DNA from: Candidatus Poribacteria bacterium
GTDB taxonomy: Bacteria; Poribacteria; WGA-4E; PCPOR2b
Length of the DNA stretch: 64,000 bases
Reading direction: 5' to 3'
Assembly: GCA_965208325.1 (NCBI GenBank)
Contig: OZ242326.1
Location: 3,712,001 to 3,776,000, forward strand
Positions within the stretch are counted from its first letter, which is position 1; every line of letters starts with the position of its first letter. The position numbers were made by a program, and so were the translations under genes. The notes under the pieces are model-generated. The model was not told the DNA's origin and ran no database searches. It saw only the letters and a program-made list of their open reading frames with translations. Of this stretch, positions 31,155-43,796 are shown piece after piece.

Positions 31155-31835
31155 CTAATACTTATAATCCAATGCCCATTTGTCTTCACACGCCAGCGAT
31201 TCCCTGTCATGCGAATTTGGACTAGCACCAGCGTGCATAGTGTAGTCTTGCCATGCAGGACAGTTGCCTATCCCAGAAGTTTTTGTCGGATCGTATTTCA
31301 CATGCTTTAAGCCCGCAGCGTGGCCCCACTCATGGGCAGCCGTGTCTCGAATACAAAGATAGCCATCGGTTTTGTTAGCATGTGTTTTCCAATCCTTATA
31401 GTAGTTGAAACCTATATCAACCTCATCTATTAAAGGCCCAATGCCGCCTATCAGCCATATATATGTCACGGCGGCATTCGGACTGTTTTCCATGCCGACC
31501 CAACTCACTACATTTTTGTTATCGTAGTCACCAGCCTCGGCGTCAATCAGTCCCTGACTTCGATAACTAAAATCTATTGTCGTGCCATCCGATCGCTGAA
31601 TGTTGCTCCATGAATTGGCAGCAGCCGTAACATCGGTTGTTAATGACGGCATTCCTGATTGTGTCGGATTGATATACCAATCCACTGGCACATGAAACGT
31701 TGCCCACTCCCACGGCCCAACAACACGACTTTGGACTTGCTCGCATGGGTACGTGTTATGGCAATGCGAGTAAACCACTAACGCTGGATTTGCTATGGCT
31801 GCAATCACAAAAATTGCGATGCTTATTTTCCTCAC
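31155..31835 (-). CDS. Secreted metzincin metallopeptidase (array M8)
   Basis: Signal peptide, 'HCHNTYPCE', HEWGHAAGLKH, Met-turn 'YTM', 'SLACEDKWAL'. Confidence 0.85.
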   Translation of the reverse strand: MRKISIAIFVIAAIANPALVVYSHCHNTYPCEQVQSRVVGPWEWATFHVPVDWYINPTQSGMPSLTTDVTAAANSWSNIQRSDGTTIDFSYRSQGLIDAEAGDYDNKNVVSWVGMENSPNAAVTYIWLIGGIGPLIDEVDIGFNYYKDWKTHANKTDGYLCIRDTAAHEWGHAAGLKHVKYDPTKTSGIGNCPAWQDYTMHAGASPNSHDRESLACEDKWALDYKY

Positions 31836-32545
31836 TTTGTTTTCTCCTTTTCAAATAGACGTTTAGAACTATCAATCAAAGTACTTTTCTGGGCTAGTGT
31901 TAAGGAATTCTCATCGGTGTTACTTGCAACATTTTTGATCTGGTTTTCAAGTAGAAGTGCAGCAGCCTTGTCTTCGATAAAAGCCTTGCCCAAATTCTTG
32001 GCAACATCAAGAGACAACTGCATCGGCTTCACCTTGTCTTCCTTTTTGTACCAAAACTCTACCTTATCTTCCTTAATCAACCGTTTGCCATAATCATCGT
32101 AGATTAAACGGTTTTTGCCGTAAGGATAGTTGGCATAGTAAGTCGTATTCTGGTCATTCGTCAGCATAATAAACACTTTTTCGCCAACTTCAAACGTGGC
32201 TTGTGTGCTAACCCACATGCCCATGACCTCTTCTTTATGCGGAACATAGGCTGTGCCACCGAGCACCATGAACTTGATATAATTAGGCCCGAAATTTGGC
32301 TCACCCTTAATCATGGTATCTAATCGAACTAGAACATCGGTACAAATACAATGTTTCTTGGGACCTAACAGGTTCTCCCGATAAACACCAGTTAGAAGTG
32401 AAACAGTACCAATGGCAACTATATCGCTGTTATCTATGCTTTTAAGCAAAGAATAGAGCGACAAATCATCGAAATAGCCACCGGCAGCAAACGACGTTGG
32501 AACCACCAGTCCCATCACCAGCAAAACTACAAATACATACTTCAT
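31832..32545 (-). CDS. Secreted OB/NTR-like partner protein (array P7)
   Basis: 'SDIVAIGTV', 'IKGEPN', 'IKFMVLGG', 'FEVGEKV', 'YGKRLIK'; GTGA overlap with M8. Confidence 0.75.
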   Translation of the reverse strand: MKYVFVVLLVMGLVVPTSFAAGGYFDDLSLYSLLKSIDNSDIVAIGTVSLLTGVYRENLLGPKKHCICTDVLVRLDTMIKGEPNFGPNYIKFMVLGGTAYVPHKEEVMGMWVSTQATFEVGEKVFIMLTNDQNTTYYANYPYGKNRLIYDDYGKRLIKEDKVEFWYKKEDKVKPMQLSLDVAKNLGKAFIEDKAAALLLENQIKNVASNTDENSLTLAQKSTLIDSSKRLFEKEKTK

Positions 32546-32566
32546 CTGAACCCTCCTTTAGGTTTG

Positions 32567-33280
32567 TTATGGACCGTACGAATACTTTTGGTCTAAAGCG
32601 TACTTATCTTCACAATTCAAACTTTCACGCCAATGCGTATTCTTGCTTGGGAAATGCCCATTCATAGAATAATGCGCATAGTCGGGACTATTTGTTCTGC
32701 TTACCGGCAGATCGGGATCGTAATAAACATCTTCTAAACCCGCCACATGCCCCAATTCATGGGCGGCTATCTCTTTGATACAATAATAGAGACCTGACTG
32801 CCCGTGCTTCTTAAAGTCTTTGTAATAGTTGAACCCGACATCTAATTCATTTATTCGATTGCCGTCAACATTAACATGGTAGGTGAAAGCAATGGTCGGA
32901 TTATGTCGCCCCATACAACTATAAGCCATAACATTGCGGTTGTCTTTCACATTGGCGTAAAATTGGTGCGACTCATTCATGTTGTACTTGAACTTAATCT
33001 CACTACCCTGAAATTCAATTTCCGACCATATTTCACCCGCATCTCCACAATCGGGCGATAAAGAGGGATTGCCCGCAGGTCTAGGGCGATATATATTGTT
33101 TACCCAAACGACAATTTCATACACGCCATCACTGTTTTTTTTCTCAGGTGGCCATACCTTGTTTCCGCGTACTATCATCGGATCTTCAGGGCCAGATCCA
33201 TTATTATGACAGTGGGAATGTCCTAGATTCGGACAAACAATTAAAAGAGCGGCTAGCACCAAGCCAAATCTAATCATCAT
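32567..33280 (-). CDS. Secreted metzincin metallopeptidase (array M7)
   Basis: 'HSHCHNN', HELGHVAGLED, 'YSM', 'SLNCEDKYAL'. Confidence 0.85.
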   Translation of the reverse strand: MMIRFGLVLAALLIVCPNLGHSHCHNNGSGPEDPMIVRGNKVWPPEKKNSDGVYEIVVWVNNIYRPRPAGNPSLSPDCGDAGEIWSEIEFQGSEIKFKYNMNESHQFYANVKDNRNVMAYSCMGRHNPTIAFTYHVNVDGNRINELDVGFNYYKDFKKHGQSGLYYCIKEIAAHELGHVAGLEDVYYDPDLPVSRTNSPDYAHYSMNGHFPSKNTHWRESLNCEDKYALDQKYSYGP

Positions 33281-34014
33281 TTCTTCTCCTTTCTAATAAT
33301 CTTGTCAGATTTCTTTTTCAACTCATCGGCTAACTTCTTTGACACAATGGCTTTGCCGTCGGACTCTCGAACGAGCGTCTTAATTTCGTTCTCCAAAGGC
33401 AATGTTGCATTCGCGTCCTTGAGATATGACTTAAGCAAGGATGTCGCCAACTCTAGCGGCATTTGGACAGGCTTGGCAACCGCATCTTTATTATAGTTAA
33501 ACGACACTTTGCCGTCTTTTACCAAACGTTTGCCAAACGTCATCATGTGCACACGATGCCTGCCGTGCGGATAATTGGCGTAATACGATTCGCCTTCGTT
33601 AGTATTGTTGGCTAAAAACAGTAAGACCTTTTCGCCTACGGCAAACTTAACTTCTTGTAACAAGGCTTGTGTCAAAACACGACCAAGGCTTGGCACATAA
33701 GCACTGCCGCCGTGTATCGCAAATTTAATGTGATCTTTGCCAACATTAGGCTTGCCCTTGATAAGATCGCTTATCTTGACAAGCACATCGGTCATCACAA
33801 AATCGGTGTTGTGTGGCAGGATGTTTTCATAATACTTGGCAGACATCAACACCACTGTGCCGACAGCGATAAAATCGCTTTTATCTGCCATATCAAGTGC
33901 ACCGTGCCACGCAATTTCTTCTGGTGTCAAGCCAGTAAACGAATACGGCTGTCTTTCGCCCCAGCACACTCTCGCGCACAAGAGCGCCAACAATACCACA
34001 AATACACACTTCAT
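33277..34014 (-). CDS. Secreted OB/NTR-like partner protein (array P6)
   Basis: Start MKCVFVV at 34014; same family motifs; ATGA overlap with M7. Confidence 0.75.
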   Translation of the reverse strand: MKCVFVVLLALLCARVCWGERQPYSFTGLTPEEIAWHGALDMADKSDFIAVGTVVLMSAKYYENILPHNTDFVMTDVLVKISDLIKGKPNVGKDHIKFAIHGGSAYVPSLGRVLTQALLQEVKFAVGEKVLLFLANNTNEGESYYANYPHGRHRVHMMTFGKRLVKDGKVSFNYNKDAVAKPVQMPLELATSLLKSYLKDANATLPLENEIKTLVRESDGKAIVSKKLADELKKKSDKIIRKEKK

Positions 34015-42362: not shown

Positions 42363-42365
42363 CTT

Positions 42366-43094
42366 TTATTCTTCTTCAGCAGTATCAAGTATTGTCTTTG
42401 CCCCTTGAGTTAAGCTAGTTACCATAGACTCCGAAACAACAACTTTGTCGCCAGAGCTCGCAACAGCCAATGTTTTGATTTGATCTTCCAGTAACTGAGT
42501 AGCATCTTTATCTATAAGTGATGCTTTGCCAAGGTTGACCGCCAAATCTAGTGGCATCTCGACAAGAATTGAAGATAGCCCGCCTTTGCTATATTGAAAT
42601 TTCACTTTATCGTTCTTAATCTTGCGTTTCCCATAAGTGCCAAAGCGTACATAGTAGCCGTCATGTGCATAATTAGCAAACATTCGTGTCGGTGTTTTAC
42701 CTAAGAACACCATTACATTTTCGCCAACCTTGAATTTGGGTCGACCGCTCATGTTCATTTGAAGCAATACGCCTGTCTGCGGATGGGCTGCCATTCCGCC
42801 AATTATCATAAATCTAATACAAGCCCCGTCTTGATAATTTGGCTCGCCTTTAATTTCCGAATCCACTTGGATAACAACGTCAGTCGTTATGATATTGCCG
42901 TCCCCAATGATACCACTGCGCCATACGCCTTGCGTTTGTATTACACTGCCCGACACAACTAGCAGGCTCTTATCGACCATTTTTACCAATGAACGTTTAT
43001 CAAGCAAATCTTCAGTGATGAATGTTGACGCATGAACCGTCGCTGAACCCAAAAGCATTATAAACAGAATCCAAACACAAAGTGTCTTTAACAT
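42366..43094 (-). CDS. Secreted OB/NTR-like partner protein (array P1)
   Basis: 'IKGEPN', 'IRFMIIGG', 'FKVGENV', 'YGKRKIK'. Confidence 0.75.
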   Translation of the reverse strand: MLKTLCVWILFIMLLGSATVHASTFITEDLLDKRSLVKMVDKSLLVVSGSVIQTQGVWRSGIIGDGNIITTDVVIQVDSEIKGEPNYQDGACIRFMIIGGMAAHPQTGVLLQMNMSGRPKFKVGENVMVFLGKTPTRMFANYAHDGYYVRFGTYGKRKIKNDKVKFQYSKGGLSSILVEMPLDLAVNLGKASLIDKDATQLLEDQIKTLAVASSGDKVVVSESMVTSLTQGAKTILDTAEEE

Positions 43095-43106
43095 TTTGGT
43101 TCTCCT

Positions 43107-43796
43107 TTATTCTAAGCCATACACATCGTGCATTGCCCATACTTCTTCACATTCAATATCTTCACGGTTATGGAGATTAGTTGAAGTTGGTTGCCACATC
43201 GAATATCTGCTATATTGGCTGCTGCATTGGTGGGCATTTGTCAAATCCAGAAATCCCGCAGCAAAATGCCCAAACTCGTGAGTGGCAACATCACGAATAC
43301 AGATTAAACTGCTGCCACCAGTTACGTGGTCTACGAACGGCGCATAATAATTGAACCCAATATCAGATTCAATAATCAGTCCTGTGCTCATAACAATATT
43401 CATACACGCCGCTGGAATATATTGATCGTCGTCACCCCATGGCAACTCGTCAGTCCAACCGACAATGTTATATCCATCGTTAATGAACGGGTTGTTACTC
43501 ATTTCACCGCCATTGGCGAACGCTATGTCAATTGTGCCGCCATTATAGGGTATTTCACTCCACTGAGAGGCGGCGTGATTTACGTCGGCTGCTAATGGCG
43601 GCATGTTAGGCATTGTTTCATTCATTTGGTATCGAACGGTGTCCGCCGTCCAAAATTCGCCGCTAATCATATCGTTTTCAACGTCTTCACAACTCTGGCT
43701 CTCATGGCAATCCGAACGGGTAATATCCAGATAACCAAACACCATAGCAATAAAGGCTACACAAACGAAAAGTGCAAGCTTAACTGACCGTTTCAT
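43107..43796 (-). CDS. Secreted metzincin metallopeptidase (array M1, no upstream partner)
   Basis: 'DCHESQSCE', HEFGHFAAGFLD, 'YSM', 'IECEEVWAM'. Confidence 0.8.
   Translation of the reverse strand: MKRSVKLALFVCVAFIAMVFGYLDITRSDCHESQSCEDVENDMISGEFWTADTVRYQMNETMPNMPPLAADVNHAASQWSEIPYNGGTIDIAFANGGEMSNNPFINDGYNIVGWTDELPWGDDDQYIPAACMNIVMSTGLIIESDIGFNYYAPFVDHVTGGSSLICIRDVATHEFGHFAAGFLDLTNAHQCSSQYSRYSMWQPTSTNLHNREDIECEEVWAMHDVYGLE

Follow-up and report, generated by a model that had tools for sequence, protein, structure and literature searches.

A tandem array of coupled gene pairs for a metzincin and its candidate TIMP/NTR-fold inhibitor in a Candidatus Poribacteria genome

Introduction

A 64-kb stretch of the genome of a Candidatus Poribacteria bacterium (GCA_965208325.1, contig OZ242326.1, positions 3,712,001 to 3,776,000), referred to in full as the window, raises the question of how a secreted metzincin without a prodomain is kept latent. 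Secreted metzincins need a latency mechanism, and in an array that occupies 28.1–44.8 kb of the window, all of it on the minus strand, this mechanism seemingly comes from a separate, co-translated protein of no named family. The gene of this protein (P) precedes that of a metzincin protease (M), and the pair is repeated along the array in diverged copies. On balance we favor the explanation that P is the cognate latency factor or inhibitor of M, in effect a prodomain supplied in trans, as the predicted folds of both proteins and the model of their complex suggest.

In the proposed mechanism a P-M unit would act as a two-gene cassette, both products of which are exported by means of Sec signal peptides. 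P would be made first from the shared message, and M would be a minimal matrix metalloproteinase (MMP)-like zinc endopeptidase lacking a prodomain of its own. Folded as an OB/NTR domain, P would bind M in a 1:1 complex in which a variable loop (residues 107–116 of the P5 copy) enters the cleft against the upper-rim strand and lies over the zinc ligands. M would be kept latent in this way, shielding the envelope of the producer up to the point at which P is removed or M set free. The cassette would duplicate, diverge (most at the predicted interface) and decay as a unit, and this unit-wise turnover would lead to arrays that differ between related Poribacteria.

Results and Discussion

Coupling of the P and M genes

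Search profiles built from the copies of the window itself were run over the single-contig genome of 4.7 Mb and matched P 7 times and M 8 times, in every case inside the array. Copies are numbered in order of transcription (Table 1). At all six P/M junctions that are present (6/6) the stop codon of P and the start codon of M overlap or are separated by 3 nt or less. Four pairs are intact and tightly coupled, namely P4/M4 (1-nt gap), P5/M5 (1-nt TAATG overlap), P6/M6 and P7/M7 (4-nt overlaps each). The P5/M5 junction reads GAGGAGGACGAATAATG, where GAGGAGGA lies just upstream of the TAATG overlap, and a Shine-Dalgarno sequence is found within the 3' end of P5. Hydrophobic N-terminal leaders, judged by eye, are carried by both P and M.

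The first-pass annotation had described seven coupled pairs. The array, the P-then-M order and the tight coupling are real, but a count of seven is too generous since M1, M2 and P3 are broken, the M gene behind P3 is gone and M0 has no P. M0 had been correctly singled out as an orphan, with no P upstream of it. The high divergence ascribed to the paralogues was borne out by identities of 30–48% among P (15 comparisons) and 30–38% among M (10 comparisons), and the family motifs listed for the two proteins were found in the window copies.

Predicted fold of P

P matched no Pfam family even at E≤0.1 and no PHROG family, and a P profile run against the sequences of the PDB retrieved chance-level matches only, with no TIMP or NTR chain at E≤10. 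An AlphaFold model of P5 built from 21 sequences (pLDDT 90.1, pTM 0.83) contains an OB/NTR-like beta barrel at about residues 40–180, flanked by a short helix at the N-terminus and three helices at the C-terminus. The top rows returned by Foldseek for this model were TIMP-2, agrin NtA, PCOLCE NTR, meteorin NTR and TIMP-1, the best at E 3.5e-3 and none at 0.001. VIA-align, a search independent of Foldseek, was run over 48,161 representative chains and superposed residues ~27–195 of P. It placed agrin NtA first (Z 8.7, root mean square deviation (rmsd) 4.0, 118/127 residues aligned), along with N-TIMP-3 (Z 7.9, rmsd 3.4, 114/121 residues) and PCOLCE NTR (Z 7.3), followed by complement C345C domains, TIMP-1 and meteorin NTR; TIMP-1 and TIMP-2 scored Z 6.7–7.9. 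In a further structural comparison NTR modules filled 14 of the top 16 rows, with 113–121 of their ~120–130 residues covered. Given the moderate Z-scores, P is assigned to the NTR fold because of this coverage and the enrichment of one module type. The nearest named clusters in the ESM Atlas were PF00965 TIMP (0.89) and NtA (0.85), which is a lead only. The OB/NTR-like fold that had been proposed for P from its sequence pattern is accordingly also the predicted one, TIMP and NTR modules being the best matches of the P5 model.

TIMPs bind the catalytic zinc through the amine and carbonyl of an N-terminal Cys1, which is part of a CxC motif, and the disulfides of their N-domain are conserved. P has no conserved cysteine: its mature forms contain 0–2, and 9 of the 18 in the set used for tree building contain none. 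This set comprises 18 intact pairs from 9 genomes and 4 genera, with P and M each covering 200 profile positions or more; truncated copies and the loci L002 and L003, which duplicate L031 and L028, were left out. As Cys1 and the disulfides are missing, P is TIMP-like in fold only, and its likeness to animal NTR modules is one of predicted fold, which does not by itself imply common descent. P was also considered as a lipoprotein, which was rejected as its leaders carry no conserved lipobox cysteine upon sequence inspection.

M as a minimal metzincin

The zinc-binding motif HExxHxxGxx[H/D] is carried by M1, M2, M4, M5, M6 and M7 with either His or Asp as third ligand, and the two alternate among close paralogues. 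All window copies of sufficient length have the Met-turn Y[T/S]M, of which M198 is invariant in 14 sequences. In the 18-pair set the strict zinc motif is found in 13 M (9 with Asp and 4 with His as third ligand); the others, from other genera, have Arg, Ser or Glu in place of the Gly of the motif, and a single copy (L051) reads QEFGH and, with Gln for the first His, is probably inactive.

A model of M5 generated with AF2 from a 14-sequence alignment (pLDDT 85.8) has the catalytic fold of MMPs. Foldseek matched it to MMP-11, MMP-9, MMP-7 and karilysin at E 2.5e-6 to 3.6e-6, and to 185 chains at E≤0.001. In sequence the likeness is more distant: the best PDB match of M was MMP-11 at E 1.4e-3, window copies scored 13.4–21.2 bits against a cut-off of 24 for the Pfam M10 family (PF00413), and the Pfam M43 and reprolysin models were likewise matched only below their cut-offs. 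A relative of the same family (L041) passes the M10 cut-off with 27.0 bits.

The cysteine switch of the matrixin prodomain has the form PRCGxPD. No cysteine-switch prodomain of this type is present in M, and M has no prodomain at all because the catalytic domain begins its first strand only ~20–25 residues after the leader. Within this short segment every M has a Cys-His directly after the leader, usually followed by xxxxCys-Glu (residues ~25–32). C25 and H26 are invariant in 14 sequences, at a model pLDDT of ~60, and the motif could be a disulfide staple or a miniature cysteine/histidine switch.

The M proteins of the genus of the window are a short form without a type-IX sorting domain. M orthologues outside the genus (L044, L045, L051, L040 and L041; genera g5 and g2) are 313–375 aa long and end in such a domain, of the Por_Secre_tail, FlgD_ig or CHU_C family.

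Predicted P5-M5 complex

One pair was folded as a complex, from M5 residues 24–229, zinc and P5 residues 22–239, each protein with its own alignment. The interface score ipSAE was 0.88, 0.79 and 0.75 in the P5-M5 runs, and 0.00 in the best of three controls. A score of 0.79 was reached by 116/157 solved complexes and 2/215 mismatched pairs in the benchmark of the method, counts that hold roughly here. At least 90% of contacts agreed between runs, partner pLDDT was at least 88 and the interface comprised 106–113 contacts.

In the predicted complex the P5 loop 107–116 lies in the zinc cleft of M5. Residues 110–115 of P run antiparallel to residues 127–119 of M, and T114 of P contacts the catalytic glutamate of M and its zinc ligands (H166, E167, H170 and H176). 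M residues 120–121 are in contact with the N-terminus of P. The M segment 119–127 is taken to be the upper-rim strand of the MMP fold since it precedes the last strand and the HExxH helix; from what is generally known of MMP structures we infer that antiparallel pairing with this strand would be in the direction of a substrate. The zinc-proximal loop sits between an invariant GG and an invariant F and is among the most variable stretches of P. Interface columns were more variable than the remaining columns in both proteins (P 2.51 versus 1.81 bits, p 1.8e-6; M 2.31 versus 1.89 bits, p 0.003). The model thus predicts an interaction of P with M and places a P loop over the zinc ligands, in favor of the cognate inhibitor that the first-pass annotation had suggested.

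Distribution, co-inheritance and fusions

M was found in 15 of 41 related genomes, all 15 of which also have P, while P was found in 23, 8 of these without M. Searches in two other families of the order found neither P nor M. The P-then-M order and the tight spacing are kept in four genera of two families. Trees of the two proteins from the 18-pair set are congruent, as anticipated for a cognate pair: the Mantel correlation was 0.92 and was reached in 0/5000 permutations, and within the genus (10 pairs) it was 0.61, reached in 2/5000. Of 15 splits, 7 are common to the P and M trees, where permuted labels gave 0.32 on average and 4 at most. The P-M pair is, from these sequence comparisons, inherited and duplicated as a unit.

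An exhaustive P profile search over a library of 1.84 billion proteins gave 84 cluster representatives at E≤1e-30, 171 at E≤1e-10 and 2520 at E≤0.001. Twenty of 150 listed representatives, picked mostly for length, were scanned with Pfam for fusions. In a metagenomic protein of 878 aa (P0169) a P-like domain (residues 1–159, E 3.4e-12) is followed by a Pfam Peptidase_M10 domain (residues 203–365, 40.1 bits, cut-off 24) and then by lectin, carbohydrate-binding module and fn3 parts. The P-like domain here occupies the position of a prodomain, so that the suggestion of a P-like domain N-terminal to bacterial matrixins found an actual example. Three fusions of P to leucine-rich repeats (LRR) and one to HEAT were also present among the 20 representatives. 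A word-indexed search for longer, fused P proteins found none, which is weak evidence; the exhaustive profile search did find fusions.

P was also encountered in other settings. In L009–L011 (genomes G011, G017 and G023) the whole P module, barrel and helices, forms the N-terminus of secreted LRR proteins of 787–876 aa, and in L012 (G015) it heads a 467-aa protein with an unknown C-terminal part; all four loci sit in a conserved enolase-superfamily neighborhood. P-P tandems without M occur in L034 (G003) and L050 (G022), and 14 of the fetched loci hold lone P genes only. The neighbors of lone P were scanned in 16 loci, made up of these 14 together with L041 and L012. No protease adjoined a lone P among the 11 open reading frames (ORFs) scanned out of 27 candidates of at least 90 aa, and the sole M10 match was the M of L041, which is separated from P by an insertion sequence (IS). 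A more distant version of the P-M pairing is seen in L043 (G014:C1:6011500-6025500), where each of two short OB genes resembling P (193 and 196 aa) is located 1–2 kb upstream of a bona fide Pfam matrixin of 55–58 bits with beta-helix and type-IX domains.

Comparison with known systems

The first-pass annotation knew of no description of such an array. That statement did not stand, as the potempin/KLIKK system (PMC9890683) and Listeria Mtz-Tim (PMC8235301) are, in the available parts of both sources, published analogues. What is new is that homologous, diverged pairs are amplified in tandem, that P is extended by three C-terminal helices, that P and M are distributed asymmetrically, and that the array has these flanking genes. 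Among the papers found on Poribacteria and metalloproteases, judged by titles and abstract openings, none dealt with P-M arrays, and none was found on Poribacteria and metzincins.

The potempins of Tannerella forsythia are described in the available text as lipoproteins of 98–132 residues and 4–14% mutual identity that shield the outer membrane of the producer. Each is encoded by an ORF directly upstream of that of a secreted peptidase, the stop codon of one overlapping the start codon of the other or lying no more than 5 bp from it; several such pairs are present per genome and the proteases are of different classes (PMC9890683). PotA is an OB-fold protein whose loops insert in the cleft of the MMP-like karilysin, and inhibition was measured in this system (PMC9890683), whereas that of M by P is predicted. 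As in this system, P lies directly upstream of M at spacings from a 4-nt overlap to a 3-nt gap, several pairs occupy one genome, and karilysin is among the best structural matches of M. Unlike potempins, all P are paralogous (30–48% identity) and ~240 aa long, with an added three-helix C-terminal part and without a conserved lipobox cysteine; unlike the KLIKK peptidases, all M are paralogous too. Potempin chains were not among the listed structural matches of P, which is not evidence that the folds differ. KLIKK peptidases are cargo of type-IX secretion, a parallel to the type-IX sorting domain at the C-terminus of M in other Poribacteria.

Animal TIMPs and other NTR proteins resemble P in that the predicted fold superposes, the predicted partner has the MMP fold and an edge of the barrel enters the cleft. 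P differs from TIMPs in lacking Cys1/CxC, conserved disulfides and sequence similarity, and its zinc-proximal part is an internal loop instead of an N-terminal amine. The serralysin inhibitors AprI of Pseudomonas and Inh of Erwinia are periplasmic, are encoded beside a secreted metzincin and are thought to protect the producer. They are eight-stranded barrels with an N-terminal trunk, single-copy and linked to a type I secretion operon. The placing of a putative inhibitor gene beside that of a secreted bacterial metzincin is common to both; the fold, the single copy and the type I operon set AprI and Inh apart from P. Serralysin inhibitors are also mentioned in the available discussion of the Listeria study (PMC8235301).

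The Mtz-Tim system of Listeria monocytogenes consists, in the available text, of a secreted metzincin and a TIMP-like protein encoded as a single pair in the order metzincin, then Tim (PMC8235301). The pairs are conserved, occur near mobile elements and, in prophages, follow directly after holin-lysin genes; Mtz cleaves Tim, a lipoprotein, and the pair sensitizes the wall to lysis (PMC8235301). By description, the Poribacteria arrays are similarly located just downstream of an endolysin-like GH108 gene and beside an IS, but have the order P then M and form an amplified array and not a single pair.

Weighing an inhibitory role of P

Several points count against P being the inhibitor of M. P lacks any Pfam or PDB sequence match to TIMP or NTR proteins, the Z-scores of 7–8.7 for its fold are in the middling range for the method, and the zinc-chelating N-terminus of TIMPs is absent because no cysteine is conserved. 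The support from the predicted complex comes from one folded pair, the score of which can profit if the model resembles TIMP-MMP complexes of known structure, although P and M are not similar to these in sequence and the zinc-proximal element differs. The zinc-proximal residue of P is not conserved. The higher variability of the interface is partly expected and the comparison is weak, since the interface is surface while the remaining columns include the core. Congruence of the trees follows from duplication as a unit and needs no interaction. Finally, P is not only a partner of M, since it is also encountered by itself, as P-P tandems and in fusions with LRR or HEAT proteins.

As the P loop runs in a substrate-like direction, P could also be cleaved by M instead of inhibiting it. 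M would then cut the exposed loop of P, a substrate or pro-effector, and free a TIMP-like fragment that acts on envelope or host proteins. In the predicted complex the loop in the cleft indeed offers no conserved zinc-binding group, P is found without M in 8/41 genomes and the arrays of the genus are flanked by the endolysin-like GH108 gene. There is also a precedent in the TIMP-like protein of Listeria, which is cut by a metzincin and encoded in a pair downstream of phage holin-lysin that alters cell-wall sensitivity (PMC8235301, available text). The prodomain position of P in the P0169 fusion and the finding that M was never seen without P among the 41 related genomes are however better suited to latency control, the gene order is opposite to that of mtz-tim, and GH108 flanks are found in one genus only. 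A role as pro-effector is therefore considered unlikely.

The predicted contacts with all three zinc ligands and the catalytic Glu are hard to square with an active complex, as would be required if P were a folding or secretion helper of M, or a tether that connects it to a surface or target while leaving catalysis unblocked. Some features do agree with such a chaperone or adaptor: P comes first in a translationally coupled pair, the predicted interface is large (106–113 contacts), and relatives with the P module N-terminal to LRR, HEAT and other domains suggest that it serves more generally for binding or anchoring. In eukaryotes, too, NTR modules like agrin NtA bind without inhibiting, the title of PDB entry 1jb3 referring to a laminin-binding domain. 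Elsewhere M has a type-IX sorting domain of its own, so that in other genera P would not be needed for its export. We give this explanation a low probability. That P and M are merely neighboring secreted genes amplified together without physical interaction is very improbable: tandem duplication alone can produce congruent trees and shared arrays, and 7/44 blind-picked neighbors pass the complex-prediction test by the figures of the method itself, yet P-then-M order and tight spacing are kept in four genera and two families, the fusion protein exists, the complex scored 0.79 against 0.00 for controls, and P is predicted to fold like the classical inhibitors of proteases that share the fold of M.

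If P does inhibit M, as we favor, the arrays would offer a natural series of diverged cognate pairs in which the evolution of MMP-inhibitor specificity could be followed. Potempin-like logic would then extend to an uncultured sponge symbiont in a collagen-rich matrix, and prokaryotic NTR-fold inhibitors could be set beside animal TIMPs. The link to an endolysin-like gene would echo Listeria Mtz-Tim and may hint at a shared envelope-related role.

Array layout and decay

Every feature of the array lies on the minus strand, in agreement with the co-orientation noted at first (Table 1). In the order of transcription, block 1 consists of the GH108-like gene, M0, P1, M1, P2, M2, P3, the 67-aa ORF, P4, M4, P5, M5 and the gene of a coiled-coil protein with a transmembrane (TM) segment. 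Block 2 consists of the second GH108-like gene, P6, M6, P7, M7 and the second coiled-coil/TM gene, and is followed by the IS3 transposase and the relics.

Table 1. Features of the P-M array and its flanks, by position in the window.
Feature	Position	Strand	Description
GH108-like muramidase gene, copy a	44094..44759	-	Upstream of block 1; Pfam PF05838 28.3 bits (cut-off 21.2); PHROG 315 endolysin, E 1.8e-16
M0	43107..43796	-	Orphan metzincin, no P upstream; aberrant motif HEFGHFAAGFLD, one residue too many for metzincin motif
P1	42366..43094	-	Intact partner, predicted TIMP/NTR fold; profile match
M1	42003..42362	-	Internally deleted: signal peptide and last ~80 aa; starts 3 nt past P1 stop
P2	41275..41979	-	Intact; 93.5% identical to copy in genome G002
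M2	40580..41278	-	One in-frame stop, codon 118; 4-nt overlap with P2
P3	39906..40568	-	Pseudogene, two in-frame stops
ORF in M slot behind P3	39700-39903	-	67 aa, unrelated to M; M lost
P4	38863..39588	-	Intact
M4	38169..38861	-	Intact metzincin; HEMGHVAGLLD, YTM
P5	37082..37801	-	Intact; copy modelled
M5	36393..37082	-	Intact metzincin; HEWGHFAGLRH, YTM; copy modelled
Coiled-coil protein, C-terminal TM segment, copy a	35472..35816	-	Downstream of block 1
GH108-like muramidase gene, copy b	34570..35202	-	Upstream of block 2
P6	33277..34014	-	Intact
M6	32567..33280	-	Intact; HELGHVAGLED, YSM; 4-nt overlap with P6
P7	31832..32545	-	Intact
M7	31155..31835	-	Intact; HEWGHAAGLKH, YTM; 4-nt overlap with P7
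Coiled-coil/C-terminal TM protein, copy b	30253..30594	-	Downstream of block 2
IS3-type transposase, two ORFs	28940..30063	-	Pfam rve, HTH_21, rve_3; separates array from its relics
Relic of M C-terminus	28636..28764	-	M profile E 9.8e-9, one internal stop
ORF with P-like leader	28135-28440	-	Leader near-identical to P6 and P2 leaders (MKCVFAVLLAVLCA...); remainder unrelated

Of the relics reported at 28.5–28.75 kb, that of M was confirmed, but the supposed P relic has only a P-like signal peptide; this ORF gave no match to the P profile in the genome-wide search and is probably the 5' stump of a lost P. The pseudogenes, the IS3 element and a P-M pair split by an IS in genome G014 show ongoing decay. 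Turnover is also apparent between species, in that the P and M of the window share mostly 37–63% identity with their best matches in three genomes of the genus, and P2 alone reaches 93.5%. The comparison of arrays across related genomes that had been proposed at first thus revealed strongly differing repertoires between species of one genus.

A scan for regulatory sites was uninformative, with 39 promoter-like sites where 28 were expected and 9 terminator-like sites where 15 were expected; one good site (43841-43813) lies upstream of M0. The window stretch was present in four DNA runs of one study, with no RNA run listed. An extracytoplasmic function (ECF)-type sigma factor gene just upstream of the array (44772-45365, minus strand) is split into two ORFs of 93 and 78 aa. 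In G001 (L028/L003) the first P is directly preceded, on its own strand, by an intact homologue of 196 aa, and the sigma factor may be a regulator of the array that is broken here.

Flanking genes and a possible route of export

The two GH108-like copies both score above the Pfam cut-off and match an endolysin PHROG; they are 96% identical and have no signal peptide as judged from sequence, and the two coiled-coil/TM copies are 97% identical. The latter protein has one TM segment, no Pfam match above cut-off and weak matches to PHROGs of unknown function. At the DNA level the two flank copies in the window are 93–97% identical and could, we infer, serve as substrates for unequal recombination. 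The layout of GH108, pairs and coiled-coil/TM gene recurs in G001 and G002, and in genomes of the same genus the flanking GH108 is 90–95% and the coiled-coil/TM protein 86–92% identical. Weak relatives of the coiled-coil/TM protein adjoin P in G032 and G029 (other family), with none in G038. GH108 relatives were found in the genus of the window only, and the GH108 link is thus lineage-specific and not part of the core of the P-M module. A prophage context was rejected since the neighbors are Lon, ClpX, ClpP, trigger factor and other housekeeping genes. P5 and M5 had no match in 50,697 phage records (tblastn), so that a recent phage origin was not supported by this search.

We take the phage N4 gp61 muramidase family to be GH108. 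The TtsA muramidase, which acts in type 10 secretion, is a member of the gp61 family according to the available text of PMC13284979. As in type 10 secretion, a peptidoglycan hydrolase gene adjoins that of a putative cargo here, a GH108-like gene being located upstream of both blocks. A speculative and rather doubtful extension is that GH108, the P-M pairs and the coiled-coil/TM protein make up self-contained export-and-weapon units. Latent P-M complexes would reach the periplasm by Sec and pass the wall by means of a domesticated lysis pair in a type 10-like manner, which would replace the type-IX domain of M in other genera. The fast-diverging pairs and the orphan P genes would then form toxin/immunity-like repertoires directed at sponge matrix or neighboring bacteria, orphan P might also inhibit foreign MMPs, those of the host included, and P would be a prokaryotic NTR-type metalloprotease inhibitor family. 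If this were true, the P family would bear on the origin of the TIMP way of inhibiting MMPs.

Two further large proteins are encoded on the minus strand near the array. Just past the array relics, 25597-27600 encodes a protein of 667 aa with an N-terminal leader and a multi-span C-terminal half that matched no Pfam or PHROG family. At 3227-9577, 20 kb from the array, a 2116-aa protein combines a gingipain-type Peptidase_C25 domain and propeptide with a type-IX-like C-terminal domain (FlgD_ig; Por_Secre_tail weak) and is a large secreted protease.

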